A stretch of DNA of 64,000 bases, taken from Elusimicrobiota bacterium (GTDB lineage Bacteria > Elusimicrobiota > Elusimicrobia > Elusimicrobiales > UBA9959). Made by a program: the position numbers and the translations under genes. The notes under the pieces are model-generated. The model was given only the letters and a program-made list of their open reading frames with translations. It searched no databases and was not told the DNA's origin. Positions 3,357 through 39,451 of this stretch are shown in pieces. Numbering within the stretch: position 1 is the first letter of the stretch; every line of letters begins with the position of its first letter. The stretch spans positions 7,711 to 71,710 of the forward strand of contig JAUSCK010000277.1 in the NCBI GenBank assembly GCA_030651035.1, written 5' to 3'.

Positions 3357-3367
3357 ACGTCCCTCTT

Positions 3368-3430
3368 GACTCCCCACTCCCGATTCTCGATTCCCGACTC
3401 CCGACTATCGACTTTTGATTTTCGATTTCC
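3368..3430. repeat. Nine tandem heptamers GAYTYYC (GRRRRTC on the minus strand)
   Basis: The run reads gactccc cactccc gattctc gattccc gactccc gactatc gactttt gattttc gatttcc. It fills the spacer between the 1070-aa gene stop (3430) and the PorV-like gene start (3356). Confidence 0.9.
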
Positions 3431-6400: not shown

Positions 6401-6630
6401 GCCGGGCTGGAGAGGACGTCGCCCTGCACCTGGAAAGTCCAGGCCGGCGTGAAGGGCGGGTAGGCCTGCTCGGAGGTATAACCGGTGCGCGCGGCGTCCC
6501 CCCTGAACATGGGCCAGTCCGCGGAAAGAACCGGCGAGTTCGGAACGCAAAGGGCAAAGAGCAAAAGCGTTGCCTGCCCGAAAATCTTCCGGGGCAGTTT
6601 CAGTATAAATGAAACGGCGTTTCTCTTCAT
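3430..6630 (-). CDS. Secreted PQQ/BamB-like beta-propeller, three FN3 domains and a T9SS-type C-terminal sorting domain
   Basis: Signal peptide (ATLLLFALCVPNSPVLSA), then DWPMFRGDAARTGYT and repeated propeller blades. Three FN3-like units follow (e.g. KIKLDWTASPGAGVTAYRIYRS). The C-terminus VYTYPNPARGDSLTFKFYV...IDVYNVAGEKV...SGVYVYRV...KKLAVIH matches the Por/T9SS CTD pattern. Start ATG 6630 (GGAGAGG upstream); the track start at 6642 is GTG. Confidence 0.8.
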   Translation of the reverse strand: MKRNAVSFILKLPRKIFGQATLLLFALCVPNSPVLSADWPMFRGDAARTGYTSEQAYPPFTPAWTFQVQGDVLSSPAVYDGKVFFGARSGSVYALDARTGELVWDYSTDGWVDASPAVSSAGVFIPSMDGRLYALDRLSGAVLWTAELGGTSVSSPLYLDGRVYAGVGLPRNSLKAFSAATGALLFEKRTALPGGQPVDSSPSSDGERVFFGANDGRAYAVDAETGAAAWPGAGYYQSIGGSYGMAALAVSSGSVYAVPGRDERRLFSLSAADGSQLGVSGPLEPQSGGEGWMGVTSPLLDGNNIYMGAGSSPHYLMALSRSGLEGVWASSPTLGNVSNLGLMSSPALANGVICAGTADGRLVFFSTAGAQLQQVLLSTYTFSSPAVANGMLYIGTHGGNLMAWRAARAASLSSPAPQEIISGTVPVRGYIRNPALSGYLLEYAAVSDPPAWTTVVSSAASAELQGALLADWDTSALSNGLYYLKLTAQETPPASTVNTALLELRVNHRPQPPASLSAADVPADSGNKIKLDWTASPGAGVTAYRIYRSTGADYALLAESLAPAVSYVDSTAPTGTVFYYRIRAFDGWVESADSPQASAASSNENPSSDGTDPSAVTDLSAGQGSQGGRVQLAWTAPGNDGAVGAASHYEIRYSTYAAFDWSGFPGAQLWKSSRTVSGAYGSAESEEVSGLFGGVTYYFSLKAWDFNGNDSALSNPATAMATLDLVAPGAPSGLAVSDAGGDHGGRLTLTWTLSPDDGAGAADVYGYRIFRSRAAGQYVSSAPYASSAAGETGYMDADAAVNLKYYYAVAAFDSTNNSTMTAEVHGISADNWRFFDAEQGGTVRLADGAEVDIPRNAVNQNDNILVTRLNPATYQPLFSAKANTQYRPTGVVYEIKFENPGTRLTSPAEVVLPYTDAEIAGLEEENLRLYKLSGSNWMLLDTSEVLAAANKVKAETDSFSVFRIMQYVPSGALLTANAVYTYPNPARGDSLTFKFYVADKASIEIDVYNVAGEKVAKLSKINCPAGLTSEITWDIRNIASGVYVYRVSAESASGGKVVTKKLAVIH

Positions 6631-6690
6631 ATGCCTCTCCACCGCCTTAAAAGCCTTCGCTCTTTACGCTTCCGGCCTATACGGTCTTCT

Positions 6691-33600: not shown

Positions 33601-34857
33601 GCCATTGGTCCAGCCGGCCATGGCCGGGGTGAAGTCGTGGAAGAACTGGAAGCCGGAGATCTGGGAGGCCGTGGTTTGTATGGCGTAGTTCCTTAGCGGC
33701 ACGTCGGAACCGCCTATCGAGGAGGCCACGGGCAGCTGGTCGCCTGTAGCCGAATCAAAGCTGCCGGCCACCCTGGCGTAGACCCGGCGCAGGGTTACGC
33801 CCTCTTCCCGCAGGTACAGGGGAATGGCGAAGTTGGTGGTTGAATTGGCCAGCGTGCCCTGGCCCAGGAAATAACGCGCGGTCTGGGTCTTCGAGGCGGA
33901 GTCCCTTGAGAACTCATAGGTCAGCACTACCTCGCCGGACAGCAGGTTCACCGGGGCCACGCCTATGGGCACGTTCAGCGTCTGCAGGGTATTGGCCAGG
34001 AAGCCGTCGGGCTGATCGGAGGAGGAGAGGTAGAGGAAAGAATAGGAATCCCCGAGGCCGTCATCCAGGTTCATGGAAGGCTCGGCCGCCCCGGTGCCTA
34101 TCTGGCAGCCCAGCGTGCCGTCGTTCGTGCCGTTCTGGTGATAGCCGCGCAGCTCGAACCACTGCTGCTGTATGGAAACCCCGGAGTCGGCTATCTCCGC
34201 GTTATACTGCATGAGCGCGGTGCCGGCGGCCTGTTGGCCGGTGAAAGCGGCAATACCCGAAGCGTAATCGGAATAGAGCGGGAAGCGGACCGTCTTCACC
34301 TGCGTGGGCGACTGGTCGTCATACTCGTAGGTGACGTAGAGCTTCATGGAATGCGAGTTGGAGGCGGGGCCGGTTATGGTCACGCCGGCCGTGAACTGCC
34401 TGCCGGCCGCAAGTTGGGCCAATTCCGCCTGCACCACGGCCGTGACGTCGGTCCTGGCGAAAAGCCTTATGGATTCCACCGTGGAGTCGGTATATTGGGC
34501 GCTCTGCAGCCGTATGGTGGAAGCGGTGGCCCCGGCGTTGAAATAGATCTCTATCGGGTTAGTGTCGGAGGCGGCCGTAAGGCCCTCGAATTCGAGCCAG
34601 GCGCTTTTTATGGCCTTGCCGTTCTCGGGAAGTTTGACCGTCCTGGTGGGAAAATTTAACTGTGTACCGGAGTTGACGTCCGCGCCGTAACGTCCGCCAA
34701 AATTGTACTCGACGGTCTTTATGCGGGTTTCCGCGGAAACGAAGGACAGAGGGTAAAGCAGGAAAGCCAGGAAAAGGAGGCGCCGGGCAAAAGAAAGGCC
34801 GCGCGGAACAGATCCGCGTTTCGCGCCTCCCTTTTCCTCAGCGTTCCCGAATAACAT
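6691..34857 (-). CDS. Giant secreted repeat protein (9,388 aa), putative surface fibre/adhesin
   Basis: Uninterrupted 28,167-nt ORF; ATG at 34857 lies 12 nt after the Rrf2 stop, with AGAGGA overlapping that stop. Sec-type N-terminus. About 50 hand-counted modules of about 100 aa (FYVxKDTxxP, xQxGDDxWR, YNVDFxD, NY[IV]SVRxxDxAGN). Also FN3-like modules, Trp-rich modules, lamin-tail-like segments and a C-terminal PQQ-like propeller. Confidence 0.9.
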   Translation of the reverse strand: MLFGNAEEKGGAKRGSVPRGLSFARRLLFLAFLLYPLSFVSAETRIKTVEYNFGGRYGADVNSGTQLNFPTRTVKLPENGKAIKSAWLEFEGLTAASDTNPIEIYFNAGATASTIRLQSAQYTDSTVESIRLFARTDVTAVVQAELAQLAAGRQFTAGVTITGPASNSHSMKLYVTYEYDDQSPTQVKTVRFPLYSDYASGIAAFTGQQAAGTALMQYNAEIADSGVSIQQQWFELRGYHQNGTNDGTLGCQIGTGAAEPSMNLDDGLGDSYSFLYLSSSDQPDGFLANTLQTLNVPIGVAPVNLLSGEVVLTYEFSRDSASKTQTARYFLGQGTLANSTTNFAIPLYLREEGVTLRRVYARVAGSFDSATGDQLPVASSIGGSDVPLRNYAIQTTASQISGFQFFHDFTPAMAGWTNGEVVRATVTAVTNAGGATGAPGMELIVTYDYTNDAAHTSSYEVLAGSDVTSALDGTYASVFGLYYPEVNGSKVMRSAWLYADIIQNDNIGDFTTTIDFDGNSAQTAAVRSITETTYMNRFYANTAQASAFPAFITANYSVSSGRGTLGGAARVNYGFTPVPKLVTGLQQYANGSALTAGTYTNARSISLEGVVASSMSADNLYFVLELKPSASSFDGLGLATGTLNSYSGTPLTVSLSSAGLTSGTVYKWRVRTLGDGGPGGWTAFTSPSFAVDYSSPPAPAMAAIAPAHNANLSITAFPLSWEAVADIDGSGLKNYELQVATSADYGTLSFSSAPLGALVQVSGLTQKYYYWRVRALDNAGNTGNWSAEKNFRVDLSTPTATSNIGTGDQAWRKANDGVYDVDFADLGESLIKQVEVKVTSGAAQTGTIFADWTLALAAVNADSYSGDWTLPAGVWNLMQSWTTNYVSVRVVDYSSQTYTLADAFKVFKDTVTPSYVNGEAGGDNTWRKAGRNYNVDFADPYSKLAGAKYEAWTGAARTGTQKKALTAIPSVSGASFGTDWSVDFASLEDSAANFISVEFYDVAGNTTTITDAFYIRKDTTPPSNINGEAGGDTAWRKAGRNYNVDFADAGSGLNGAKYAARTGANYTGTLKVASTTIAGVTGASFNADWSVDFASLEDSAANYVSIELYDVAGNTATITDAFYVRKDTTPPSNVNGESGGDNTWRKAGRNYNVDFADAGSGLNGAKYAARTGPNYTGALKVASTTIGGVAGASFNSDWSVDFDSLEDSAANYVSIELYDVAGNTATITDAFYVKKDTTPPSNINGETGGDAAWRKAGRNYNVDFADAGSGLNGAKYAARTGPNFTGSLKVASTTIAGVAGASFNSDWSVDFTSLEDSAANYVSIELYDVAGNTATITDAFYVKKDTTPPSNVNGEAGGDNTWRRTSRNYSVDFSDGGSLLAGAAYEAWTGGGKTGTQKKALTAIPGVSGASFNTDWAADFDALADEVLNYLSVEVYDVAGNTSTITDAFIVRKDTTAPRLADGQSGDDIWRNEPGTVYNVGFTDPVLLDHAQYSVWSAPGRTGTLRKDWTYINGSPINSSNYDTDWAVDFSALAEGQTTNYISVRAWDVAGSTAVFDDVFYAQKDVSLPYITDSQGGDDAWRSSSGTLYGVAFGDAGGSLLNSAEYKITTGAGQGGTLVLDWTALAAGIGAASYPGPWALPQAAWNGLPAGLSYISVRVTDYAGNSQAQSDVFYVKKDTQAPSATDLQSGDSAWRKTGSAVYDVDFADAGGSLLQKVQVKITTGPSQTGTLVTDWTDNLTNIDASSYSDPWSLAAGLFDLLQSGTNYVSVRVFDYAGSSSALTDVFYVKKDTSAPTVTDGQGGDDSWRRFGGTVYNVDFADPGAGLSGAKYEAWTGPGRTGTQKIALTAIPSVTGPLFADNWAVDFALLEQGTNYISVEAYDALASTATSADVFYVKKDNAAPVITDSQAGDGTWRNAAGTVYNVDFQDLNSKLATAQYRITSVTGQGGTVIKDWADIFTAQELSSYAADWQVAFADLTSGVTGYVSVRAYDTGGNLSQVSDVFYVLKDTIAPYIAISTPPGGYGAYENDPGGVFNVDIFDEGGSQLSYLQYSISSGSAFSGTLVKEWSNFALNVGATYYMQNWGVDFNALLKDPATNYVSLRGYDTAGNIIVSTDVFKIFRSSSAAPNLVDNQAGDDIWRNSSGTYYNVDFTTSSGFALDWFEAAAYSELGRLGDLLINWTTVRTNLGSSPYADDWPLPESFFNGMREGVNYISVRVYDSSSPANVSNVKDVFYVRKDTSPPSVPVLLSPVDNAGLNYAGVMFDWADSNGLQSGTSNYELILATSSDFTTITASSSPVVSQAYVPGLAQNPYYWKLRAKDHAGNFSAFASTYTFLVDLATPTITGLQADATHYLTANTGLYNVNFDDLGGSLLDKAQVRVTSGPAQTGTLLVDWTDAVTGMNSLSYSTDWALPASAWNALPSGPTGYVSVKVYDRAGNSFVQSDVFTVWKDTAPPYVSDNQAGDDNWRGSDPGAIYNVDFYDLESLLTTAQYRLYSGAGQTGALLKDWTTIVYLPGGTTQYSSAWGVDFGAALEGMTYVSVSLSDRAGLTSQAGDLFYVRKDTSAPVITDGQAGDGSWRSTPGTVYNVDFGDLSSGLTTVQYKVTRETGETGTLVKDWTNIVPDLAGQTSYAADWTLDFSALLETVTNYVSVRAYDQLGLGTTVQDVFYVRKDVTLPAITDDQLGDDAWRNADTASYSVSFADAGGSLLDRAQVKITSGPAQTGTLIADWTDRITDIEAATYAAPWQLGAALWNQLPEGKSYVSVRAYDNAANPRTVTDAFHVRKDATVPVINDVQSGDDSWRNTNSASYALSFSDTGGSLLASAEVKITTGPAQTGTLIADWTPVASAIDSSSYPGPWSLTAGLWDLLAAGTNYVSVRVSDNAGSAASLADAFYVRKDTQAPAINDTQGGDSVWRNSNAGSYAVGFTDPGGSLLSKFQVRASTVAGGAGPFSPDWTDNVTAINAASYPGPWTLVSGVWTLLQPGTNYISIRAYDNAGSPAVLADAFNVLKDTQTPSGSAVPPAYAGALAFNVAWSASDSGPSGVNYARLYYTLDTVSPYTWTQFGSTFNSSPIAFTAPSGGTAGFRIVAYDRAGNSDEADPPAAETAPEASTLVDLAAPSVTDNQAGDDAWPNAGGTSYNVDFSATGASDLDTAQYKVTSGPSQTGDVLKDWTTIAAGIGSPSYTANWQVDFAALKSSFNYVSARAWTVAGTTTTANDVFYVKKDTSPPAALDNQAGDDAWRRAAGTLYDVDFQDQLSLLANVQYSASSAEGSASGNLVAWTNIAYGISAENYTTDWEADFAALNSGGTNYISVRAYDLAGNMSVSTDIFHVHKDTVPAVITDNQAGDASWRTSNAGVYNVDFADAGGSLLSVIQVRASSGPAQTGTLAFDWSDLATGVNSASYADNWSLQAGNWNLLLPGTNYISVRAWDTAGTTVTLNDAFYVLKDQAGPGITDNQGGDDAWRAYAGTVYNVDFDDPLSGLASLQAKVHSEPGGAGLLLADWTQVTALAGAAHAADWALVPSLFSAMAEAQNYVTIRAYDTAGNYSTLADAFYVRKDATGPVITDNQGGDAVWRSTYNGVSYNVDFDDTLSLVSKFQVRASSGQGFTGNQALDWTDDLTGINASSYAGDWEFAPGVWALLLPGTNYISIRAYDVAGATSTLADAFYVLKDTAAPAAVSDLAAGTGSEGEVTLSWTASGDDASSGTALAYIVKLSSTGAINAGNFDSAGTYAQSWQPAASGLPENGSLTGLQADTLYYVAIKVQDKAGNLSAISNLPSGTSGADVTNPGTISLGAATGAFEGQVDLSWTAPGDNGVAIGTATAYLARYRTDQAITSLPLWDGAQVYAQSWQPLGAGEAEVKTISGLTPGTVYYWAVRAVDEVNNTGSLSNSPSASAQNAGAVGGIMQFGVSSSYDVPYFRKWAPPAFGSAQTGLETAAAANSQIRHAVVKASRLRNEKISGLLSSDGVLQIQRYDGVTDAWTNEWSVTEIGATNSAYRGFDIAYEQNSGRAMVLYSGVTAGQLKYNIWNGASWSGAVTLTSGTANASLWVRLEPKPGSDELMAAVLKATSLEIYAMRWTSTTWRDGTQIVASAGSSAKQRYDIAWEKTLGRCLVVYGGATGRADTKIWDGSAWSAYTATYFSFAGGNGVAQWIRLVSDPTSDRIGATAVDSGADWNAAIWDNGWTYAATENGAVDSNANQARSIDAAWESQSGKLVVVSAHGTASGLLYSSWTVSGGWGTTLAAAPTVTGWSNAVRSAVLESDPNTNSLILTAASGSNDLRSATWNGSAFSLYGSVHTAAISANAYMPFDFALDRHDTSAPTLADNQAGDDTWRNSNTGSYDVDANDTGGSHLKEIQVKVYTGAGQTGTLVLDWSAQVSTAVVDSYTDNWALAASTWTALREGVNYISVRSLDGALNATVNPAVDAFYVKKDTTAPSVPSLSSPADNAAVNTQPLLDWSDSSDGTSGVAGYTLQVSTSDDFTTLSFSDSPSVSQASASGLDSGKYYWRARALDAAGNYSVYSSTFAVFVDTAPPVVTDAQAGDDTWRRSSGTVYNVDFTDAGGSRLQNVRYAVYSSTGRQGAELVSFASGLIADSIGADSYPTDWKLSQAHWDLLPNGTSYVSAQAADAAGNTAVLEDVFYIRKDVTAPGVSDNQAGDDAWRKDSAAVYNVDFTDTGGSLIDRIQVKVTTGPAQTGTLISDWTSLASGVNSASYASDWSLGASTFTLMQSGTNYVSVRVFDYAGSTATLSDVFYVRKDTTAPSAPSLVAPADGGYSNSAGPLFDWSDSADALSGLSGYEIYIGTDEFFSVFSASAAASSSQHQAAGLVSAAYYWKARAADNAGNYSAWSSTYALVLDTAPPTMADNQAGDDAWRGSDPGAVYNVDFADAGGSLLDTVQYSAWTQPGLGGSNLVPWTNITAPPVNLAAYAADWAANFDLLGSGTSYISVRAADRAQGSAETQDVFYVRKDASPPSITDNQAGDDAWRNSNAGVYNVDFTDSGGSRLDKFQLKITTGPSQTGTVLLDWTDKAGAINSETYAEDWTLSFDQWTLLGPGTSYISVKAFDGAQNQATLSDAFYIRKDTSAPSITDNQGGDDAWRGSNSGAYNVDFADTGGSKLAYFQIKVTTGAAQTGTLVSDWLTVLSGLNAASYDAEWAVPEGVFTAMQSGLNYVSVRVFDNAGLTQSLNDAFYVKKSTSAPRVTDSQGGDDTWRSMAGTVYNVDFEDAGTSLLAAAQYKVTSLPAQAGTLLKDWTFIASNINASAYTTDWSVDFAALAENGSNYVSVRAWDVAGATTTAADVFYIRKDITLPGITDNQAGDDTWRNADTGVYNVDYTDAGGSLLDRIQVKATTGPSQTGTVLQDWLDVAAGINSSGYSANWSLPAGVWNALLEGPNYVSVRVYDNAGNTSALSDAFYVRKDTTVPSVPSLSTPADFAYVRTLGPTLDWTNSSDGTSGIYGYEALVSTHSGFSVIASSGAPAASQFTAALSMSATHYWKVRASDNAGNYSDYPSAYALVVDTIAPVITDGQAGEVSWRKADGGAVYNIDFADALSTLDTLQYSAWTGAGQTGANPVPWTNIAAGYSQQQYQGDWAVNFSLLSAGTNYISVRAWDLAGSTGTLADAFTVLKDTFAPSVTDSQAGDDTWRNSNSAVYNVDFADALSGLATAQYYISTDVSMGGSQVKNWTDIFSALNAPSYSSDWSLSAAAWSLLPEGTFYLTVRVFDTLAQDATSYDVFHVRKDVSAPGVTDNQADIAAAHSQADLSAINADFTDTGGSLLSYAQYTAWSDGYQTGGEVIPWTNIVTGINAASYTQDWSVNFAVLPNLAYSYITVRIYDNAGNSHIQDVFSLYKDASAPSIIDNQSGDDTWRASNTGVYNMDFQSQSGQNLDKFQVRASTCTSGCAYAPDWTDVVTALGAVDYTADWALPGAVFDALAAGRNYVSVRAHDLVPSSGTFDNAFYVQKDTSAPSITDGQTGDAAWRAAAGTVYNVDFLDSLSGLATAQYKVMSGAGQTGTLLKDWTNIASLTPGQASYSSDWAVDFAALSEVFTNYVSVRAYDALAQSAALDDAFTVLKDTTPPSAPALSSPADNALYSVSAVSFDWTDSSDLRSGTSGYALEVSTRADFQVVAYASAPAVSAASLPAVGDGVYYWRVRAADAAANYSAWAATRAFIVDVSSPEVINNQASPTAWYGSDPGAVFDVDFRDLSSGLTSVEYRITSLPAGGGGLYKDWTVISFTPGGLALYDAAWGVDFAAAKDGSNYVSVRAFDRVALSSAAADAFVIRKDTSAPSITDGQAGDDNWRNASGSLYNMDFADSGVGVSTAQYRVTSLPNGAGTVLKNWTDLFSGQAYASYTADWGVDFFALQETATNYVSVRAWDALGSSRTAEDAFYVLKDVTNPSVADNQADTDWLAADPGAAFDVDFADLGGAKLSKFQTRVTTGPAQTGTLVWEWTDRITAINATYYNMPWSLDFASMPEGPNYISVRAYDNGGNFAAQTDVFAVRKDTTPPAVTDLQAGDDTWRSANNGTYNVNFADTGGSLLSRFQVTASSATGLAGTPHFGWTDLVTGINAAAYDADWALTAELWALLPSGTSYISVRAWDNAGSSGTLADAFYIRKDTQTVTITDNQAGDTAWRSVNDGLYNVDASASGASLVDRLEVRSSTMPGGAGPFTSDWTAAVTGINSASYTAEWALPGTVFDAMLSAATNYISVRVYNQAQNSASQSDVFYVRKDTVPAVITNNIAGGDQTWRGAAGAAYDLDFTDSGGSLLEKFQVKITTGASQTGTLVTDWADNITAINAPAYSADWALFAGAWDLLQEGTNYVSLRVYDEAGNITFSTDAFRVFKDTTVPSVTDLQAGDDAWRNANNGLYNVDFTDTGGSRLERFQVRASTNAGLIGPFSPDWTDNVAGINLPSYTSDWALASGVWDLLREGTNYISVRVYDGAGNLFTYGSQPFYVLKDTTAPSYVNGAAGGDLNWRNSSGTLHNVDVQDAGGSKLSVYQFSVTTGAARTGIMPVDWTPIASGLNSASYAADWALPQAAWDLLPEGTNYISVRAWDIAGTTGTLVDAFRIFKDTTAPAASSAQAGEFDWRGLNTGLYDADFTDTGGALLAKFQVRASTTPGAGPYSPDWTDNTLGLNAAAYPADWPLASGVWDALVDSVTNYISLRVFDNAGSSFTLTDAFRILKDTTPALITDNQAGDDNWRSAAGTLYNADFSDYGSRVSSAAYAAWTQPAAGGSQSLGWTQIFTSTGLLSYTADWSADFNNAAQGFNYISVRAWDKAGNLTELADAFYLKKDTAAPSMTDLQAGDTTWHRLNPGDVFNVDFADGGIGLSSAAYEAWTGPGKTGANVVASSQIFSGAPITSYTADWGLTDAAFTLLAAGTNYISVTAWDGLDQSSAAVDLFYILKDTVAPSGITALSAVTPPAAADEGKLNVYWTAVGDNALAGSASYYMIRYHTDAINDGNFDAVSVFVSTLTPKAAGQGEGIIIAGLTPSVTYYAAVKAVDKAGNTGALSNLTSTYAGLDLTAPETVSDLSSLQGDFQGQVNLYWTAPGEGVAGVAGAGTAQAYIVRYATFAVNSGNFSAPNVSSYTQTWTPLAYGQAEARVLDGLSPGATYSIAIKAVDEAGNTAPISNVIVGTAAPAGAADGMLVYGDNSANLRYQTWVPPNWSAEADSGVTGSVIRWSVLKSVPLVANQKLAGLLYSDNSLKVLKWNGSAWSDATPAPAPAPGGSVTRRFDMAAENLSGRIMTAYYNGTTGAVTYAVWSASASAWAAGPASLPLTSLTGTVNWVRLRSMPGTDRILLTALDANSDISAAVWNGSVWIDNVNLTTAGSIATKESFDAAWETQTGDALVLWGTGTGTSYRKWYSASTWGAPTAGPALAATAGANWIRLCSDPSTNRIGLTSLDGDIDWNMAVWRPAGAEAWSALPTEDTAMSGTGYRMTDCAWESQSGQLLAVAVDDAGATDNKFDWITWSAGTWSPASPSVTATNNNTVFAGSITWLSLIPDPNTDNITALGVDGPANDVRSTVWNGSAWAAAGASANALHEQSGSGHIYEFAAADFDRHDIVPPTAADNQAGDDNWRNASAYYNVDATDSGGSRLARVQTKVHSAAGLGGTLLQDWTDQVTGINLDSYTTDWPLAAGTFNILPQGQSYVSVRALDNVGNISNSAVDAFYVRKDTTVPTITNNLAAGFDPAWRSADAGNIYDVNFADSGGAQISSITYSAWTGAAQTGANAVDNAVISSGTGVGNSYSADWGMNFGLLAHGTNYITVRVWDWASSSATLVDAFKVLKDTQAPADITALAASPGPVRGSVKLEWPAPGDDGALNDNAQGGYLVRAATYNITAALFDSAGVYAQAWVPQGAGVTESKVLYGFEAGKTYYFAVKTYDKAGSTSAISNVPSSLPQTANVYINEVYPSGAAAVDDWVELFNNTASTFNLTGWTLVYNQGTIDLPGPEVTVWTGADVDRSSVNAHFVSTISFNLNGAQSYHLLLKDPSGVLIDRVQWPYLEAGQSFARIEDGNADFFEADPTPTRGYANAISTGLVKINEAAYGTLSSEFVELFNTGADTPTLSGYSLRNSNAVKFTFTRKIYAGNYSLLVFSSISDDQLSWQSAFGTGGLNAAGDYLSLENAVGQTVDRVTWQSGTSYSLYNYKAAQVSAAAYAPANAPYSIGRRPSEGEDIGSDSTDFVSAAVAATPMSRNNGAGAGAANTLAYPAEGQKLPRLFPLRLTLGADSSGGTADNIALIRTGGAADNYSPHLYRLGDIGFDLASLAAQSTAQAGVSFADQDGHALVHNAVYRLLLNSDSVSDSAPQLALAAVTYDASVHTVSASTTAPARVNQGASDDLALFYVSNNSPSGYNSVELASASLRFYDADLNPLDTAKASALFDAVYIARDSASGLPGIYEPAIDTDTAAYVGNGEISLDAFGTQVITAANPGAAANSVAAASTATFFAVVMMKADAASQAVNVFRLRFRADTELTVRDGPSDFAQLLPAAAEIESSSVTAIAPSSAPAGTSWPYTPPEPTSVEAPVDYYTNEGSSTVYSPATDGVLRALNGDGTFKWAFTPSPASPIRNGPTVPWPSGAPQVYFANDNGDIYRVQDNGPGVSQVWKRGLGSAVRSSVMVIGERLYLGTMDSKIYCLNVSDGLNCADWTFSSSVNSPIVGTLSIDDRTDVNRGWIGLDNGKMVTFRTGDGYVDTSFQTGAAIKSSPYVDAGYGGANNNLYLASTDGRLYARVAANLESIPTGWPALGYVDLFSPLYSSPFIWPLGGTKYIFVGDDAGRLHKINAVTGAEAWTFQANGQIRSSPVLVPGGYVGLAEDYVYFGCDDSYIYAVNANTGQLRDGWPVATGGPVRADPVADIENRVLITGSGDGKTYVLSIGP
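6694..7800 (-). other. C-terminal PQQ/BamB-like beta-propeller of the giant protein
   Basis: Repeated blade pattern: DGVLRALNGDGTFKWAF, GDIYRVQD, DSKIYCLNVSDG, DGRLYARV, AGRLHKINAVTGAEAWTF, SYIYAVNANTGQLRDGW. Confidence 0.65.
8800..9620 (-). other. Two lamin-tail-domain-like segments
   Basis: VYINEVYPSGAAAVDDWVELFNNTASTFNLTGWTL and VKINEAAYGTLSSEFVELFNTGADTPTLSGYSL match the LTD hallmark I-N-E ... [DE]-[WF]-V-E-L-[FY]-N ... L-[ST]-G-[WY]. Confidence 0.6.
10650..12640 (-). other. FN3 pair plus Trp-rich module 2 of about 420 aa
   Basis: ILKDTVAPSGITALSAV and two FN3 units are followed by GAADGMLVYGDNSANLRYQTW...KWNGSAWSD...VWNGSVWID...TVWNGSAWAA, ending at FDRHDIVPP. This is a paralogue of module 1. 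Confidence 0.55.
16174..16185 (-). repeat. Homopolymer of 12 G on the coding strand (C12 on plus) inside the giant ORF
   Basis: The plus strand reads cagcccccccccccccggc. The tract encodes Gly6225-Gly6228 (LPAGGGGLYKDW) and is the longest homopolymer I found in the window. Confidence 0.9.
21900..23845 (-). other. FN3 pair plus Trp-rich module 1 of about 420 aa
   Basis: VLKDTAAPAAVSDLAAGTGSEGEVTLSWTASGDD and a second FN3 are followed by GGIMQFGVSSSYDVPYFRKW...IWNGASWSG...IWDGSAWS...ATWNGSAFS, ending at LDRHDTSAP. The periodic W-x-G-[ST]-x-W pattern suggests a propeller or beta-sandwich array. Confidence 0.55.
27950..28870 (-). other. Low-GC compositional island inside the giant ORF
   Basis: Hand counts: line 28501-28560 has 23/60 G+C and line 28621-28680 has 25/60, against 39/60 for a typical flanking line (29401-29460). 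The segment covers about three modules and the frame is preserved. Confidence 0.75.
30500..32140 (-). repeat. Five tandem 327-nt (109-aa) units, the inner three near-identical
   Basis: The linker sequence recurs with a 327-nt period (e.g. 30811 vs 31138). Protein units run DAFYV[RK]KDTTPPSN[IV]NGE.GGD..WRKAGRNYNVDFADAGSGLNGAKYAARTG...NYVSIELYDVAGNTATIT. The outer units share EAWTG..TGTQKKALTAIP. Confidence 0.85.
34732..34857 (-). other. Predicted Sec signal peptide of the giant protein (aa 1-42)
   Basis: MLFGNAEEKGGAKRGSVPRGLSFARRLLFLAFLLYPLSFVSA/ET has a long basic n-region, a hydrophobic core and small residues at -3/-1. Confidence 0.6.
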
Positions 34858-34869
34858 AAACTTTTTCCT

Positions 34870-35316
34870 CTACTCTTCCGCCGCGCCGCCGCCGCTTGTC
34901 GGCCTCGGCGCTTTTTTCTTTTCCCCGTCCTTATGCCGCTCTTCCTCTTTCATCATCTCGATGATATCCTGCACGCTGAGGCCCACCAGCCAGTGGTTCA
35001 CCTCTTCGCGCAGGGTTTCGTACAGCTTTATGGAGATCTGTTTCCGGTCGGCTTTGGGCGCGCCGTTGAAAGTGAAGGACTCCATCAGTTCCCAGACGCT
35101 GATATCGTCCAGTTCTTTGTTCAGGCGGTAGCCTTTGCCTTTCTGAGATTCCACGAAACCCGCGTGCACCAGCGCCTGCAGCACCTTGTTGCAGTAGGCC
35201 GCAGGCAGGCCCTGGAATTTGGAGATCTGCCCTACTTGGTTCCAGGCGCCGCCATTGTTCTGCCCGAGGTAATGCAGGCAGGCCAGGCCATAAGCTAAGG
35301 TGCGGTTCATCTTCAT
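34870..35316 (-). CDS. Rrf2-family transcriptional regulator without a Cys cluster
   Basis: 148-aa winged-helix N-terminus (RTLAYGLACLHYLGQ...ISKFQGLPAAYCNKVLQALVHAGFVESQKGKGYRL). It lacks the three C-terminal Cys ligands of IscR/NsrR. Its stop lies 12 nt before the giant gene ATG. Confidence 0.8.
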   Translation of the reverse strand: MKMNRTLAYGLACLHYLGQNNGGAWNQVGQISKFQGLPAAYCNKVLQALVHAGFVESQKGKGYRLNKELDDISVWELMESFTFNGAPKADRKQISIKLYETLREEVNHWLVGLSVQDIIEMMKEEERHKDGEKKKAPRPTSGGGAAEE

Positions 35317-35335
35317 AAAAATATCTGTATTCGCC

Positions 35336-35364
35336 AGCCATTGGACACTTCTTATCCAATGGCT
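35336..35364. promoter_or_regulatory. Perfect 10-bp inverted repeat (candidate Rrf2 operator)
   Basis: AGCCATTGGA-N9-TCCAATGGCT, total 29 bp, lies 20 nt upstream of the Rrf2 ATG. The size fits Rrf2-family operators. Confidence 0.55.
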
Positions 35365-35370
35365 CCCCAG

Positions 35371-35400
35371 AAAAAAGGCGGCACTATACTAGCCTGCCGC
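35371..35400 (-). terminator. Hairpin plus U-tract (terminator of the rSAM operon and/or leader attenuator of the Rrf2-giant unit)
   Basis: The minus strand reads GCGGCA-GGCUAGUAUAG-UGCCGC followed by CUUUUUUCU. It lies downstream of the predicted -10 at 35415-35420. Confidence 0.4.
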
Positions 35401-35414
35401 TTGTTGATATCTAT

Positions 35415-35442
35415 AGTATAGCAGGCGTATTTCCATAGTCAA
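35415..35442 (-). promoter_or_regulatory. Sigma70-like promoter for Rrf2 and the giant gene
   Basis: The minus strand reads TTGACT-N16-TATACT. The -35 box overlaps the rSAM stop codon (35439-35441). Confidence 0.5.
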
Positions 35443-36536
35443 GGGGTAATCTCGCGACTCTTGGATACATAAATCTGGCTCATTATTTTCGCCATTTCAC
35501 AGGCCGGTTTATTGGGAGCGAACAGGTTTCCTTCCTCAATAAGGCTCAAGCCGGGACAGCGGCTGCAGAAGTCTATATCCGCGCAGGAGGCGCAGCCTTT
35601 AAGGTCCCGCATTCCTGCGCTGCGCCATTTTTTAAGCCAGGCCGAGTTTTTCCAGATGTCGGAGAAGCTTTGCCTGGTCAGATCCCCCAGTTTTACCGGA
35701 ACCTGCAGGCAGGAATAAAGCCCGCCCTCCGGGCCGACAGCGCAGACATTGCGGCCGGCGCCGCATAGAAAATCCAGGGTCGGGGAGTCGGGAGTCGAGA
35801 GTCGGGGGTCGAGCGCAGCGAGACTGTGCTTGTCGGGAATCGGGGAGCGGGGATTAAGAGGCGCGGAGAGAAGTTTTACTGCTTTTGACAGCTGCGGGCC
35901 GGAGAGGCGCAGGGGGAGGGCGGAGGCGTTGCCGTCGTTGGTTGAGGTTATAGTCGGGTCGAAAGAGATATCAAAGCCTTCTGTTTCAGCGAGTTTCCTG
36001 AGCCAGCCGGCCTGGCCCAGGTTTTTTTTCATCAGCGGGGTTTTAAATTTCACTTTTATGCCGGCCGCCTTAAGCAGGCGGGCCGCCGCAAGGGTGTGTT
36101 TAGAAGAATTTTTCACGCCGGTAACGGAATCATGCAGGGCGGGTTTACCATAAAAACTGAGCTCAAAGGCGGAAACCCCGGCTTTCTTAAATTCAGCGGC
36201 AAGTCCGGGTGTCAGCCCCAGGCCAGTGGAAAAAACACGGACGTCGAAGTTGAGCTTTTTTGCGTGGCGGCAGAGCTCGGCCAGGTCGGGACGCAGCAGG
36301 GGTTCCCCCCCGGTATAAACCAGGTAAAGCGCGCCGGCTCCCGCCAGCTGCGCGAGGATATTCTTCCATTGGGCGGTTGTCAGTTCAAGGCCGGCGGGGG
36401 CGCGGCCGCGGGTCTCCGGCAGGTAACAATGCAGGCAGGCGAGGGGGCAGCGGCGCGTGAGCTCAATAGTGACCGCCGCCGGGATATTCCGCTCAAGCGT
36501 AAGCGTGTTCAGTTTAGCCGCAATTGCGAATTTCAT
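35439..36536 (-). CDS. Radical SAM / SPASM-domain peptide maturase
   Basis: 365 aa with the CPLACLHC (CxxxCxxC) cluster, GGEPLL, and a C-terminal Cys-rich SPASM region (FLCGAGRNVCAV...CLQ...GCASCADIDFCSRCPG). Confidence 0.85.
   Translation of the reverse strand: MKFAIAAKLNTLTLERNIPAAVTIELTRRCPLACLHCYLPETRGRAPAGLELTTAQWKNILAQLAGAGALYLVYTGGEPLLRPDLAELCRHAKKLNFDVRVFSTGLGLTPGLAAEFKKAGVSAFELSFYGKPALHDSVTGVKNSSKHTLAAARLLKAAGIKVKFKTPLMKKNLGQAGWLRKLAETEGFDISFDPTITSTNDGNASALPLRLSGPQLSKAVKLLSAPLNPRSPIPDKHSLAALDPRLSTPDSPTLDFLCGAGRNVCAVGPEGGLYSCLQVPVKLGDLTRQSFSDIWKNSAWLKKWRSAGMRDLKGCASCADIDFCSRCPGLSLIEEGNLFAPNKPACEMAKIMSQIYVSKSREITP
35777..35870 (+). repeat. GRRRGTC word array embedded in frame in the rSAM gene
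   Basis: The plus strand reads GGGTC GGGGAGTC GGGAGTC GAGAGTC GGGGGTC ... GTC GGGAATC GGGGAGC GGGGATT AAGAGG. This is homologous to the minus-strand reading of 3368-3430 (GTC GGGAATC GAGAATC GGGAGTG GGGAGTC AAGAGG). It encodes LNPRSPIPDKHSLAALDPRLSTPDSPTLD between the rSAM core and SPASM. Confidence 0.75.
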
Positions 36537-36563
36537 ATCCGGATTTCCCGAATGGGGTGCGAA

Positions 36564-36905
36564 TTACACGAACAACAGAGCAAGCGAGCGGCGGATCTTT
36601 GAGTAGATATAGCCGCAAAGGCCGCCGGCAAGGGGGTTTCGGCTCAGGACTTTGCCGCGGATATTTTCCCATGGCACCAGGTGGGGTTCCAGGCGGCCGG
36701 CGTCATCCGCCAGCCAGGCGCCTTCCGGCCCGGTTTTTACCACCCGGTGAAGCAATATGCGGCCCTCAAGATCGTATACAGCGCAATCGCCTGGGGAAAG
36801 GATAAGGGATGAGGGATGAGGGATGAGGGGATGCACGAGGGCAATCTCGCCGGGTTTAAATACCGGGAGCATGCTTGACCCCTCAAGACGGAAAGCGGCG
36901 GGCAT
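36564..36905 (-). CDS. S26B-type (SipW/Sec11-like) signal-peptidase-fold protein, candidate leader peptidase
   Basis: 113 aa. EGSSMLPVFKPGE (GxSMxP Ser box) and ILLHRVVK (His in place of Lys, as in archaeal/ER-type S26B). The ATG lies 2 nt after the precursor stop. Confidence 0.6.
   Translation of the reverse strand: MPAAFRLEGSSMLPVFKPGEIALVHPLIPHPSSLILSPGDCAVYDLEGRILLHRVVKTGPEGAWLADDAGRLEPHLVPWENIRGKVLSRNPLAGGLCGYIYSKIRRSLALLFV
36797..36831 (+). repeat. Five tandem heptamers RARGGAT inside the peptidase gene
   Basis: aaaggat aagggat gagggat gagggat gagggga, encoding the loop PLIPHPSSLILSP in frame. Confidence 0.85.
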
Positions 36906-36907
36906 AT

Positions 36908-37045
36908 TCAGGAAAATTTTTTAAGCGTCTTACAGGCCAGCTGGCTGATGGGCCCGGTCTGGCACTTGCCGCAGGCCAGCGCGGCGGTCTCAAAGACCTT
37001 TTCGGTCTTTATTTTAGGTTTTTCGTATGTCTTCTTTTTTTTCAT
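36908..37045 (-). CDS. 45-aa candidate RiPP precursor peptide (not in the ORF track)
   Basis: My translation is MKKKKTYEKPKIKTEKVFETAALACGKCQTGPISQLACKTLKKFS. GGGGGAG sits 7 nt upstream of the ATG. The ORF begins 14 nt after the PqqD stop, and its stop is 2 nt before the peptidase ATG. It has a PqqA-like KP leader, an A-L-A site and three Cys. Confidence 0.7.
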   Translation of the reverse strand: MKKKKTYEKPKIKTEKVFETAALACGKCQTGPISQLACKTLKKFS

Positions 37046-37059
37046 AGATCACTCCCCCG

Positions 37060-37323
37060 TCAGGTCTTTTTAGCAAGCAGGCCGGCTTTCAAAAGCTCGG
37101 CAATAAAGCTGTTCATATCCGCGCGGGCGGTTTCTTCGTCCACTTCGAATTCGGCCGTAATTGCCGAGACCAGGGCGCTTTCCTTTTTACCGGAGGCAAG
37201 GCCTTCCCAGATAAGGGCGGCGGGGCTGTTCAGCTCGTGCAACTCGGCCCGGGAGGCGTCCACTATGAACATTTCCCCGGCAATGCGCCGGTAAGCCAGG
37301 TCCTTTTTAATATTGGTCTTCAT
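37060..37323 (-). CDS. PqqD-family peptide chaperone (RRE)
   Basis: 87 aa. IAGEMFIVDASRAELHELNSPAALIWEGL...ITAEFEVDEETARADMNSFIAELLKAGLL fits the PqqD pattern. Confidence 0.8.
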   Translation of the reverse strand: MKTNIKKDLAYRRIAGEMFIVDASRAELHELNSPAALIWEGLASGKKESALVSAITAEFEVDEETARADMNSFIAELLKAGLLAKKT

Positions 37324-37355
37324 TAGTATTTATCCGAAAAGTCAGCGGGCTTTTT

Positions 37356-37763
37356 TCATTGAAACAGCGTTTTTACCCAATCAAGGTAACGGCCAACATC
37401 TTTTGTGATGTCCGACGCTTCCCGTTCGGTAAATTCCCTGGAATCATATTCCACTATGCTCTTTTGCCCAAGGATACGGGTAAGCCGGGCGGACTGTACG
37501 CTGACCTTCTCGTGCTTTATGTGAATACACAGCAGCTCTACCGCCTCATAGTGGCTTTCTCCGGCTGAGCGCACCTTGGCTTTAAATCCCAGCGCCGCGT
37601 CGGTAGCGGATATAGCGCAGTGGACTCCCGCCAGGCCCGCCGAATTCCACCGTCTTTGTCTGCAGGACTCCAGCATGGTCTGGTAGAATTCCTCAGCCTT
37701 CTTCAGATAGGATTTTGCCTCGGCTTCGCTCACATGCCTGGTGCGGTGTTTTTTAGGGCTCAT
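37356..37763 (-). CDS. HEPN-domain protein (toxin of an MNT/HEPN pair)
   Basis: Helical protein of about 135 aa with an R-x5-H motif (RSAGESH). It overlaps the upstream MNT gene by 11 nt. The track start at 37781 is TTG; ATG 37763 is preferred. Confidence 0.7.
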   Translation of the reverse strand: MSPKKHRTRHVSEAEAKSYLKKAEEFYQTMLESCRQRRWNSAGLAGVHCAISATDAALGFKAKVRSAGESHYEAVELLCIHIKHEKVSVQSARLTRILGQKSIVEYDSREFTEREASDITKDVGRYLDWVKTLFQ

Positions 37764-38376
37764 GGGCCAGCAGCTCCTCAAAATATTTACCGGAAATTAC
37801 GCGGCCTTCCTTGATCACATTTTGGATCAATTTATCTTTTTTATCGAACCTGGCGACAAAGTCCCGGCGACGAATAACATGCGGGGAAAGCATCATTCCG
37901 AATTTGGCCAGAAATTCCCCGCTTTTATCCTGTATGCCAGCGGTGATCTTCCGGACATCGAGGGAATCCTCAAGCACGAGCATAATATCCAGGTCGCTGC
38001 CCTGTCTGCCTTCCCCGCGCGCCACACTGCCGAAGACGATCAGGGACACGACGCCTTTATTCGGCAGCGCCTTGCGCAGCTCCTCTATCATCGCGCCAAA
38101 CAGCCCCCCCTCGCTTTCGAAAAGGGGAGACAGCATATTTTTAACCACATAACGCGTTCTGTTGAGCGAGAATAAATATGAAGCCCCCGCGGTCTTCCTG
38201 TGGACGATGCCCGCGGCATAGAGTTCCTGCAGGGCCTGCTGCGCGGCCCTGGGGCTCAAGTCCGCCTTCCTGGCAATTTCCCTGCCCGTGAATTCCGTCC
38301 CGCGGTAAAGGATGCGGAGAATAGTCACCTTTGACTTCTGCCCCAGAAAATCCTCCAGCAGATGCTTTGTGTCCAT
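37753..38376 (-). CDS. Winged-helix plus minimal nucleotidyltransferase (MNT) protein
   Basis: N-terminal wHTH (KVTILRILYRGTEFTGREIARKADLSPRAAQQALQEL) followed by the NTase motif LIVFGSVARGEGRQGSDLDIMLVL (GS...DxD). Confidence 0.8.
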   Translation of the reverse strand: MDTKHLLEDFLGQKSKVTILRILYRGTEFTGREIARKADLSPRAAQQALQELYAAGIVHRKTAGASYLFSLNRTRYVVKNMLSPLFESEGGLFGAMIEELRKALPNKGVVSLIVFGSVARGEGRQGSDLDIMLVLEDSLDVRKITAGIQDKSGEFLAKFGMMLSPHVIRRRDFVARFDKKDKLIQNVIKEGRVISGKYFEELLAHEP

Positions 38377-38377
38377 A

Positions 38378-38438
38378 TGTATACTTAAGTAGCCATTTGT
38401 ATGCTAATAGTATACACCCCCCGGCGCTCCCCTGTCAA
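38378..38438 (-). promoter_or_regulatory. Sigma70-like promoter with TGTATAC operator boxes upstream of MNT/HEPN
   Basis: The minus strand reads TTGACA (38438-38433)-N18-TATACT (38414-38409). Inverted repeat TGTATAC (38378-38384) / GTATACA (38410-38416), plus a TGTATGC half-site at 38398-38404. Confidence 0.55.
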
Positions 38439-38451
38439 CCCCGCATCCTCT

Positions 38452-38476
38452 TTGCGCATCTTGCGCTTCTTTGCGG
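38452..38476 (-). repeat. Post-stop 25-mer, second copy
   Basis: The minus strand reads CCGCAAAGAAGCGCAAGATGCGCAA, a 24/25 match to 775-799. It starts 9 nt after the HprK-like stop; the first copy starts 3 nt after the ABC ATPase stop. Confidence 0.85.
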
Positions 38477-38485
38477 CTAATCCCA

Positions 38486-39355
38486 CTAACTAATAAGGCT
38501 CAGGAAATCAGCGTTATCCTTTGAGAATTCCAACCGGGCGAACTTCGCTTTTGAGATCAACTGGACGGCATTCCCCATTATCAAAGTCGAGGTCCCCGGG
38601 TTTTTATCAAAATTCACCAGGCAGCGGAGCAGCAGTTTAAGCGCTTCACCCTTTGTACAGGCGCGCACTTTGTTGAGCTTCGCCTTGTTAAGCAGGTAGA
38701 TCCCGCCCAGGGGCCAGGAGCCCTGCCTGCCATCGGCGCGCATCTCCCCCCAGAAAGGGGAGCCGTAAACCCTGAAGCGGCCCTTTTCAAAGCGGACGAG
38801 GTTTATTTCGTCGCTTATTACCTCGGCCCCGCACTTTTTCCGAAGACGGCCAAAGTGCGGGGCAAGCCCCTGGGCCGCTAATTTCGCCAGGGTGGACTTG
38901 CCGGCGCCGGATTTGCCTAAAAAAAGGTATGCTTTGCCGTTCTTAACCAGCCCGGCCGAATGCTGCATGAAGCCGCCGGAACGGATGAGCAAAAAACTTA
39001 TAAAAGAACGTAAAAAAGCGTCAAGGCACTGTTCATTGGGGGCGGCTTTCAGTGTTCCGGCCCCGGCACGCATATCCAGAACCGCCTCAAAATCCCCGCG
39101 CTTAATTTCCAGAGAGCGTCCGTCAAACAAAACCTCCGGCTTGAACGGGTTTTGCCTGCCGGGGGCCTCAGAAACATCCAGCCTGAAGCCCGCGCCGACC
39201 GCCGACCCGAATTTACTATACCTGTGCTTTAAAATTGAAATGATACTTATCGCGTCCGATTTCAGGCTTAACCTGAAACCGGCTATTTCAAGCCCCACCC
39301 GGCCTGAGAAAGCGGCCAGGGTCTTTCCACTGTTTTTCAAAGGGAATTTTATCAT
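38486..39355 (-). CDS. HprK-related kinase-like P-loop protein
   Basis: 289 aa. HSAGLVKNGKAYLFLGKSGAGKSTLAKLA resembles the HPr kinase C-terminal P-loop. No HPr kinase N-terminal domain is present. Confidence 0.6.
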   Translation of the reverse strand: MIKFPLKNSGKTLAAFSGRVGLEIAGFRLSLKSDAISIISILKHRYSKFGSAVGAGFRLDVSEAPGRQNPFKPEVLFDGRSLEIKRGDFEAVLDMRAGAGTLKAAPNEQCLDAFLRSFISFLLIRSGGFMQHSAGLVKNGKAYLFLGKSGAGKSTLAKLAAQGLAPHFGRLRKKCGAEVISDEINLVRFEKGRFRVYGSPFWGEMRADGRQGSWPLGGIYLLNKAKLNKVRACTKGEALKLLLRCLVNFDKNPGTSTLIMGNAVQLISKAKFARLEFSKDNADFLSLIS

Positions 39356-39451
39356 GATAAACTTGCCGCGTCAATCATTTTAACACCCGAAAGGCGGATA
39401 TCTTTTTTTGCCTGCTATTTCCCTGTTTCCCCTTCCGGGCCGGCGCCGTCC

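Follow-up and report, generated by a model that had tools for sequence, protein, structure and literature searches.

Autoregulators of the Rrf2 family, exemplified by IscR, NsrR, RsrR and CymR, pair a winged-helix fold and a dimerisation helix with a dyad of ~23–29 bp at the regulator's own promoter region; one of them, CymR, is without iron–sulfur (Fe–S) ligands. Bacterial roadblock repression, in which a repressor bound to DNA within the transcribed region blocks elongation, is represented by CodY, CcpA, PurR at purB and LacI at downstream operators. Terminators in the 5′ leader of regulated genes characterize classical attenuators and riboswitches, and in lambda pR′–tR′/Q and in operons controlled by LoaP or RfaH a promoter-proximal terminator is overcome by processive antitermination. 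At the terminators of RNA polymerase I (Pol I), a roadblock by Reb1, Nsi1 or TTF-I, a T-rich element and an upstream RNA hairpin cause termination; once the enzyme has stopped, roadblock and T-tract commit it to a hairpin-mediated release that needs deep backtracking and loss of the RNA-cleavage activity of the Rpa12 subunit (PMC12366685). Here we analyzed a 64,000-nt stretch of DNA from an Elusimicrobiota bacterium (contig JAUSCK010000277.1; the window, whose coordinates are used throughout), in which a promoter, a leader hairpin with a U-rich tract and a palindrome stand in front of an rrf2 gene and a giant gene of ~28 kb. Each part is ordinary, namely a σ70 promoter, an intrinsic terminator and an Rrf2 auto-operator, and the key feature, unnoticed in the initial annotation of this DNA, is the fixed coupling of terminator and operator. 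We propose, with a probability of roughly 55%, that the operon is subject to negative autoregulation after initiation, in which operator-bound Rrf2 and the leader terminator would act jointly. On balance, the 130-bp interval appears to form a regulatory cassette of the rrf2–giant-gene operon that is complete in itself and phylum-wide.

All cassette elements are read on the minus strand. The −35 hexamer TTGACT (35437–35442) overlaps the TGA stop codon (35439–35441) of an upstream radical S-adenosylmethionine (rSAM)/SPASM gene and is followed, after a 16-nt spacer, by TATACT (35420–35415), which together with a TG at 35423–35422 forms the extended −10 element TGcTATACT (35415–35423). This promoter has both σ70-type hexamers at a spacing within the 16–18-nt range and matches 10 of 12 consensus positions in addition to the TG; a 6-kb region contained seven promoter-like sites against 2.0 ± 1.5 expected. 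The transcription start site (TSS) would accordingly lie at ~35408. As judged by folding and complementarity, a leader hairpin (35378–35400) pairs GCGGCA (35400–35395) with UGCCGC (35383–35378), with an inner extension giving a stem of 6–9 bp, and runs directly into the U-rich tract CUUUUUUCU (35369–35377), which consists of C, six U residues (35376–35371) and CU. Beyond it lies the predicted Rrf2 operator, a 29-bp palindrome (35336–35364, no strand assigned) with a perfect 10-bp inverted repeat whose arms, AGCCATTGGA (35364–35355) and TCCAATGGCT (35345–35336), flank a 9-nt gap. The rrf2 start codon follows at 35316, and the giant gene begins at an ATG at 34857, 12 nt past the rrf2 stop codon, with a GAGGA Shine–Dalgarno sequence overlapping that stop. 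The features that the initial annotation had listed, including the promoter and its overlap with the rSAM stop codon, the N9 inverted repeat and the 12-nt gap before the giant gene, were all found at the given coordinates, with one small correction: the rrf2 ATG does lie just past the repeat, but at a distance of 19 nt rather than 20.

Scanning of genomes yielded 47 Elusimicrobiota loci, and the cassette counts given below cover 46 genome and 20 metagenome loci, or 60 distinct sequences. Because no single element is strong evidence alone, the significance of the cassette rests on this ~60-locus conservation. What is conserved in the upstream regions goes beyond the dyad and comprises the whole layered layout: promoter, GC hairpin ~12 nt after the −10 element, T-tract, spacer, palindrome, rrf2 and a very large secreted-protein gene. 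TTGACw with a 16-nt spacer to the −10 element was present in 54 of the 56 scorable cassettes, CTGCTATACTAT in the extended −10 region was almost invariant between loci, and a T5–10 tract was found in 59/60 cassettes. The distance between the end of the T-tract and the operator core is constrained as well, being exactly 7 nt for 47 of the 59 cassettes (range 6–11); the window has 7 nt when counted from the last T (35369) and 9 nt when counted from the T6 run. The sequence of this spacer is not conserved, only its length is constrained. The −10 element and the operator core are separated by 49–55 nt in 45/56 cassettes. Other distances vary widely, including those from the −10 element to the stem (4–43 nt) and from the operator to the ATG (31–395 nt), as do the lengths of the hairpin (16–36 nt) and its loop (3–15 nt). 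One natural variant (L040, positions 5560–5660 of that locus) has no hairpin and no T-tract; there, TTGACA-17-TAGAAT is followed after 12 nt by the operator, which occupies a classical repressor position. This locus provides a natural 'Δterminator' comparison.

Several smaller features of the promoter–leader segment were recorded alongside. The initial transcribed region is often a 12-bp palindrome, ATTGATATCAAT, and the window carries ATAGATATCAAC at 35401–35414. In seven loci (L006, L014, L023, L025, L028, L029 and L034), the 5′ flank of the hairpin contains an almost exact copy of the operator half-site (CAATGGAC or CATTGGAC), which may be a third half-site or may merely reflect common ancestry. 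An 8-bp inverted repeat joining the −10 element and the hairpin loop was discarded as window-specific and unconserved, and on inspection the hexamers did not fit either a second promoter within the T-tract or operator or a σ54 −24/−12 reading of the dyad.

The palindrome was unique in the 64-kb window, and none of 100 shuffles gave a match. Its conserved 23-bp core, CATTGGATA-AGAAG-TGTCCAATG (35339–35361, no strand assigned), is shared with the related loci, across which the consensus reads CATYGGAYA-N5-TRTCCRATG. When searched with up to two mismatches in 12-kb loci, the core preceded the rrf2 ortholog at 46 of the 47 genome loci, always as a single copy per locus, at −31 to −395 relative to the rrf2 start. 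The exception, L005, has just 183 nt of upstream DNA; its contig (CAMTWW010000056.1, L005:1–40) starts with the Illumina adapter AGACGTGTGCTCTTCCGATCT, which accounts for the missing cassette. Among at least 120 metagenome core matches listed, 20 encode an Rrf2 ortholog and all 20 of these have the full cassette, while the remaining 100 have neither Rrf2 nor a promoter with a T-tract. That number is of the order that chance would give for a pattern of ~32 bits in a collection of this size, and no further regulon members were identified among these matches. Within the core, GGA/TCC and CAT/ATG are near-invariant, a degree of conservation beyond what symmetry alone would require. The central variable pair was U-A in 20, C-G in 12, C·A in 12 and U·G in one of 45 loci, and the outer pair was C·A in five of 45. 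Because the half-sites thus vary independently (Y/R) and frequently place C·A in the sense RNA, we read the palindrome as an operator in the DNA and not as a stem in the RNA. The length of the 23-bp dyad agrees with the solved NsrR–operator complex (7b0c), which contains a 23-bp operator fragment. Just 3′ of the operator, ~15 loci (L004, L011–L016, L021–L027 and others) carry a further motif, GCTGTTGGTCACTGG, containing the half-site-like TTGGTCA; the window, with only 19 nt between operator and ATG, lacks this motif.

The rrf2 gene (34870–35316, minus strand) encodes a 148-amino-acid (aa) protein that matched Pfam Rrf2 (PF02082) over residues 4–82 with 61.6 bits against a cut-off of 30. With the NCBIfam superfamily model TIGR00738, to which residues 1–119 aligned over positions 1–131 of 132, the score was 63.1 bits against a cut-off of 73.3, and because it falls below the superfamily cut-off the protein is regarded as a divergent Rrf2 member. 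The ortholog profile matched the structures of IscR and CymR. The AlphaFold2 model (predicted local distance difference test score of 72) has Rrf2 topology, with predicted helices at residues 5–19, 28–35, 39–52, 74–82, 88–105 and 115–134 and a wing at 55–65, and so appears to include the long dimerisation helix of the Rrf2 fold. In a Foldseek search with this model, the 38 best PDB matches were all Rrf2 proteins, including NsrR on a 23-bp operator. Among 32 orthologs, Cys13 is invariant and Cys42 is present in at least 90%, with no other conserved Cys; residues 84–110, which span the ligand loop, contain no Cys, placing the protein outside the Fe–S subgroup of IscR, NsrR and RsrR. The annotated lack of a three-Cys cluster was thereby borne out, Cys13 and Cys42 being the only ones present. 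The proposal that the regulator is a non-Fe–S Rrf2 protein acting on its own gene is strongly supported by phylogenetic footprinting, by the single core per locus and by a fold without Cys ligands, and it is likely, as far as sequence can tell, that Rrf2 binds the dyad and represses. No recognizable Shine–Dalgarno sequence precedes the rrf2 start (35317–35335), and the giant gene has GAGGA 8 nt before its ATG (within 34858–34870), which suggests that the regulator may be translated at a low level relative to its target. Among 143 Rrf2 homologs, the best 120 are 64–95% identical, and every homolog with a named source comes from Elusimicrobia. A literature search found no paper joining Elusimicrobia and Rrf2.

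The evidence for the leader hairpin comes from the related loci more than from the window. The hairpin-energy calculation that the initial annotation had proposed gave a folded leader with a minimum free energy of −10.2 kcal/mol, which in the window alone is not significant against shuffles (z = −1.43, p ~ 0.1). Across loci, the hairpin 3′ arm abuts the T-tract in 45/45 cases, with a mean z of −2.0 and p ≤ 0.05 in 26 of 45. There are 28 distinct 3′ arms among these 45 loci, so that the stem sequence changes while pairing is kept. Alignment of the cassette with MAFFT followed by RNAalifold recovered the palindrome only, with the terminator stems misaligned; the hairpin was tested instead by per-locus folding against shuffles and by an alignment-free complementarity control, in which each 3′ arm was matched to its own upstream 30 nt and to those of other loci with dissimilar arms. 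Five or six of six Watson–Crick matches to the own locus were obtained for 41 of 45 loci compared to 29% of the cross-locus controls, and complementarity was 5.29/6 for self versus 4.13/6 for cross-locus comparisons. Such locus-specific compensation is what a selected RNA structure would show. A GC stem-loop followed directly by a U-tract, the anatomy of an intrinsic terminator, is therefore present in the window and in all 45 related loci, and it is likely that hairpin and U-tract terminate transcription in the leader.

The initial annotation had further suggested an 'attenuator-like structure'. A plain leader terminator is indeed conserved, but the additional parts of an attenuator were not seen: upstream of the terminator we found neither a conserved alternative pairing nor a leader peptide or leader open reading frame (ORF), and no Rfam family matched in an E-value scan of 33000–40000 or in a gathering-threshold scan of 12 related loci. 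The −10 element and the stem base are separated by a median of 12 nt, which leaves ~5 transcribed nt before the stem. With no room for an antiterminator and no Rfam match, the leader is not a classical attenuator; it shares with attenuators and riboswitches the terminator in the 5′ leader, and differs from them in having no sensor domain, antiterminator helix, leader peptide or Rfam family. Any gating must come from a trans factor, for which the operator ~7 nt past the T-tract is the obvious candidate. Origin-dependent antitermination, in which read-through RNA from the rSAM gene would pair with the terminator 5′ arm, was considered separately. In the window, the promoter-spacer RNA GCCUGCU can pair with the 5′ arm GGCAGGC, and the terminator was lost from long-RNA folds in about half of the loci. 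The candidate was rejected, as self pairing of promoter-derived RNA with the 5′ arm was no better than the cross-locus and shuffled controls (self −11.0 versus cross −9.9 kcal/mol, z = −0.4).

In the mechanism that we propose, the near-consensus σ70-type promoter with its extended −10 element would fire at ~35408 and, ~8 nt on, the RNA would fold into the GC hairpin and U-tract, an ordinary intrinsic terminator releasing an RNA of ~38–40 nt and, where the rSAM operon is adjacent, ending that operon as well. The operator of the downstream-encoded Rrf2 would lie a few base pairs past the U-tract, centred near +58 and, given the predicted TSS, within the transcribed region. Because +58 is too far downstream to block promoter binding, Rrf2 would act on polymerases that have already initiated, repressing as a roadblock. 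With its active site in the U-tract, the polymerase would extend over the left half-site, from which it follows that an occupied operator and a terminating polymerase would be in contact or mutually exclusive and hence not independent. Bound Rrf2 would halt RNA polymerase beside the hairpin and U-tract and the transcript would be released, the roadblock making a tight stop of what would otherwise be a moderate terminator. Once Rrf2 dissociates, possibly on a signal sensed via Cys13/Cys42, a fraction of polymerases would continue into rrf2 and on into the 28-kb gene, and this read-through would restore Rrf2 and close a negative feedback loop, rrf2 being the first gene of the operon. The cassette would thus probably serve as a repressor-controlled gate on giant-gene expression. 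The polymerase–operator overlap and the length-constrained spacer are the grounds for treating the elements as one device; that terminator and operator actually cooperate is a tentative proposal with less than even odds. Still more speculative, and resting on analogy, is a repressor-operated intrinsic terminator in the full sense, in which the Rrf2 dimer at a fixed ~7 bp past the U-tract would decide between release of the ~40-nt RNA and extension into the 28-kb gene.

Published work gives the proposal some footing: in vitro, tR2 functions as a terminator even when the transcription unit is just 38 bp long, with ~33–38% termination (PMC6978380), EcoRI E111Q halts RNA polymerase ~14 bp upstream of its site (PMC3064811), and the arrangement of hairpin, T-rich element and roadblock protein brings about termination by Pol I (PMC12366685). 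Several points weigh against joint action of Rrf2 and the terminator. A roadblock abutting the polymerase cut release by 60–70% at terminators with an interrupted U-tract (PMC3064811). By analogy, bound Rrf2 could inhibit release, the opposite of the proposed effect, and a ~14-bp stand-off would put the active site at the first U residues with the 3′ arm still in the RNA:DNA hybrid, so that release is not guaranteed. A constitutive terminator would also reduce derepressed expression. The window hairpin is insignificant by itself, the spacing departs from 7 nt in 12 of 59 cassettes and reaches 9 nt when measured from the window T6 run, and the adjacency of the rSAM gene in ~30 loci lets a plain operon terminator explain part of the conservation.

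This last point leads to the strongest rival, in which the elements are independent: the hairpin would terminate or insulate the rSAM operon and be located within the rrf2 leader by coincidence, the palindrome would be a simple roadblock auto-operator, and the spacing would be a product of compaction. Both element types are commonplace, the L040 cassette works without a hairpin, and in ~30 loci the rSAM ortholog ends at or no more than ~25 nt from the −35 element with no other terminator after it; in the window, too, the leader hairpin is the sole terminator-like element after the rSAM/SPASM gene. The suggestion of the initial annotation that the hairpin may terminate the upstream operon for ribosomally synthesized and post-translationally modified peptides (RiPPs) accordingly fits the position in those loci, but hairpin and geometry are kept beside divergent or unrelated upstream genes as well. 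In L001 and L009 the upstream neighbour is a divergent ATPase gene; loops and flanks have changed there, but the stem persists with a G·U substitution. L044 has a transposase-like gene upstream and L037, L042 and L045 have unrelated genes, all with the cassette intact; L037 and L042 are Elusimicrobium-like. Because it is kept without a co-directional upstream gene, the hairpin is part of the cassette and more than an rSAM terminator. Moreover, the spacer length stays constant while the spacer sequence and all neighbouring distances vary, and a promoter placed ahead of a terminator is costly unless purposeful. We regard independence of the elements as unlikely.

The remaining rivals fare worse. 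Rrf2 might instead act positively, either by sitting ahead of the polymerase, blocking translocation and so preventing release to hold a poised enzyme, or because the leader terminator is a checkpoint for a processive antitermination factor of the lambda Q, RfaH or LoaP type that the 28-kb transcript would need. Leader terminators do precede long operons under processive antiterminators, and UUUAUUUUUU-type tracts are present in many cassettes. A roadblock 0–1 bp ahead inhibits release at interrupted-U-tract terminators (PMC3064811). However, a roadblock halts elongation too, leaving no net gain, and the operator of L040 sits in a repressor position. No NusG paralog, Q-like gene or other antiterminator gene was present among the window ORFs scanned; a weak test revealed no Q-binding element, ops-like site or σ-dependent pause element, and inspection of the leader and initial transcribed region, likewise a weak test, showed no −10-like hexamer with A2 and T6. 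Positive action is improbable on this evidence. It is more improbable still that the palindrome serves as a stem-loop in the 5′ untranslated region for mRNA stability or translation control: RNAfold does predict a 12-bp stem in the window and the paired columns are mostly complementary, yet the near-invariance of the sequence itself, the C·A mismatches at the central and outer columns, the 31–395-nt range of distances to the start codon and the agreement of the dyad length with the NsrR complex all speak for DNA recognition. Least probable of all is a gene for a trans-acting small RNA of ~40 nt, with rrf2 expressed by read-through or from another start. A near-consensus promoter followed directly by a terminator in ~59 cassettes and the recurrence of the 5′ leader part ATTGATATCAAT in many loci would suit it, but the single-stranded 5′ leader is only ~5 nt long and is unconserved in more distant loci, loop and stem sequences vary freely, the Rfam scans of 33000–40000 and the 12 related loci gave no match, and there is no other conserved promoter between operator and rrf2.

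The proposed negative autoregulation by Rrf2 and the leader terminator resembles several described systems in part. Compared to the Rrf2 autoregulators, with which it shares fold and dyad and, in the case of CymR, the absence of Fe–S ligands, the present protein is only ~20% identical to solved members and falls short of the superfamily model; its operator would lie past a terminator, at ~+45 to +73, and not over the promoter; and its target is a giant surface-protein gene rather than Fe–S, nitric oxide or cysteine metabolism. The operator consensus is also not known to resemble the IscR and NsrR motifs. The roadblock sites of CodY, CcpA, PurR and LacI are not known to be coupled at a constant distance to an intrinsic terminator, whereas here a hairpin and U-tract stand directly upstream of the operator, at equal distance in most of the 60 cassettes. 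With the processive antitermination systems the locus has in common a strong promoter, a close terminator and a very long transcription unit, but its adjacent factor is a repressor-type DNA-binding protein sited downstream of the terminator. In part order the cassette resembles the Pol I terminator: hairpin, T-rich element and protein site a few base pairs downstream occur in the same succession, with the 7-nt spacing, in the cassettes. This comparison is one of sequence order only; the Pol I terminator is eukaryotic, uses unrelated proteins and an unrelated polymerase, and acts at a gene end instead of in a regulated leader, so that the likeness is analogy and not homology.

We found no description in the literature of the conserved order, the rigid terminator–operator spacing, the restriction to a single phylum or the coupling to giant genes. 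Nor was a description found of how giant genes (>25 kb) are regulated, a giant-gene preprint being silent on regulators, promoters and terminators. Giant genes of this size are costly and slow to transcribe, and the cassette supplies a concrete regulatory unit for them in ~60 genomes of a largely uncultured phylum, together with a new Rrf2 subfamily and its predicted operator. If the spacing does reflect cooperation, intrinsic terminators in bacteria can come under the control of a DNA-binding repressor, a principle documented so far for Pol I, and the ~110-bp cassette would be a compact part for synthetic biology. Were the terminator truly repressor-operated, it would constitute a bacterial, regulated counterpart of the Pol I terminator and an Elusimicrobiota-wide switch for giant surface-protein genes.

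The giant gene itself (6691–34857, minus strand) encodes a protein of 9388 aa with a signal peptide and Ig-like, FN3, lamin-tail (LTD) and β-propeller domains. Downstream of it (1791–6642, minus strand) are genes for a 1070-aa β-propeller protein with a type IX secretion C-terminal sorting domain and for a PorV/UPF0164-like protein, a pair that hints at an export route for large proteins. On the basis of its own domains and of these neighbours, the giant protein is probably exposed at the surface or secreted. In most related loci, too, rrf2 is followed by a very large ORF, so that the linkage between rrf2 and a giant secreted-protein gene is conserved. A second operon layout was observed in seven loci (L006, L017, L022, L023, L027, L031 and L007), in which Rrf2 and a further ORF are separated by a secreted protein of ~400 aa (AAVPGLINFQGRLLDSNKLPRNG...); the further ORF runs off the end of the locus and extends to at least ~1,570 aa in five loci, ~1,370 aa in L007 and ~790 aa in L031. 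Two copies of cassette plus rrf2 are present in a single metagenome-assembled genome (JACQYT01; L038 and L044), which establishes that paralogous units exist. One copy is followed by a giant ORF and the other by a small ORF, whose N-terminus we took, by eye, to resemble a REP-associated tyrosine transposase.

The rSAM/SPASM gene that ends at the −35 element (35439–36536, minus strand) is the last gene of a PqqD/HprK-like, RiPP-like cluster (35439–39355, minus strand), which is syntenic with the rrf2–giant unit across Elusimicrobiota (L001–L047). The conserved order is an HprK/ScmC-like P-loop protein, a PqqD-like protein, a small S24/signal-peptidase-like protein, rSAM/SPASM, the cassette, Rrf2 and the large secreted protein; no precursor peptide gene was identified in the cluster. 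In the window, a pair encoding a helix-turn-helix (HTH)-nucleotidyltransferase and a HEPN protein, reminiscent of MNT/HEPN toxin–antitoxin systems, lies inside the cluster (37356–38376, minus strand). A blastp comparison of the two or three cassette-nearest ORFs of each related locus returned no counterpart of either protein, and from sequence the pair looks like an inserted module. Upstream of the cluster (39452–44301, minus strand) are tandem genes for proteins of 849 and 767 aa with spermidine-synthase-like domains, both of which exceed the cut-off of a fused MFS/spermidine-synthase family.

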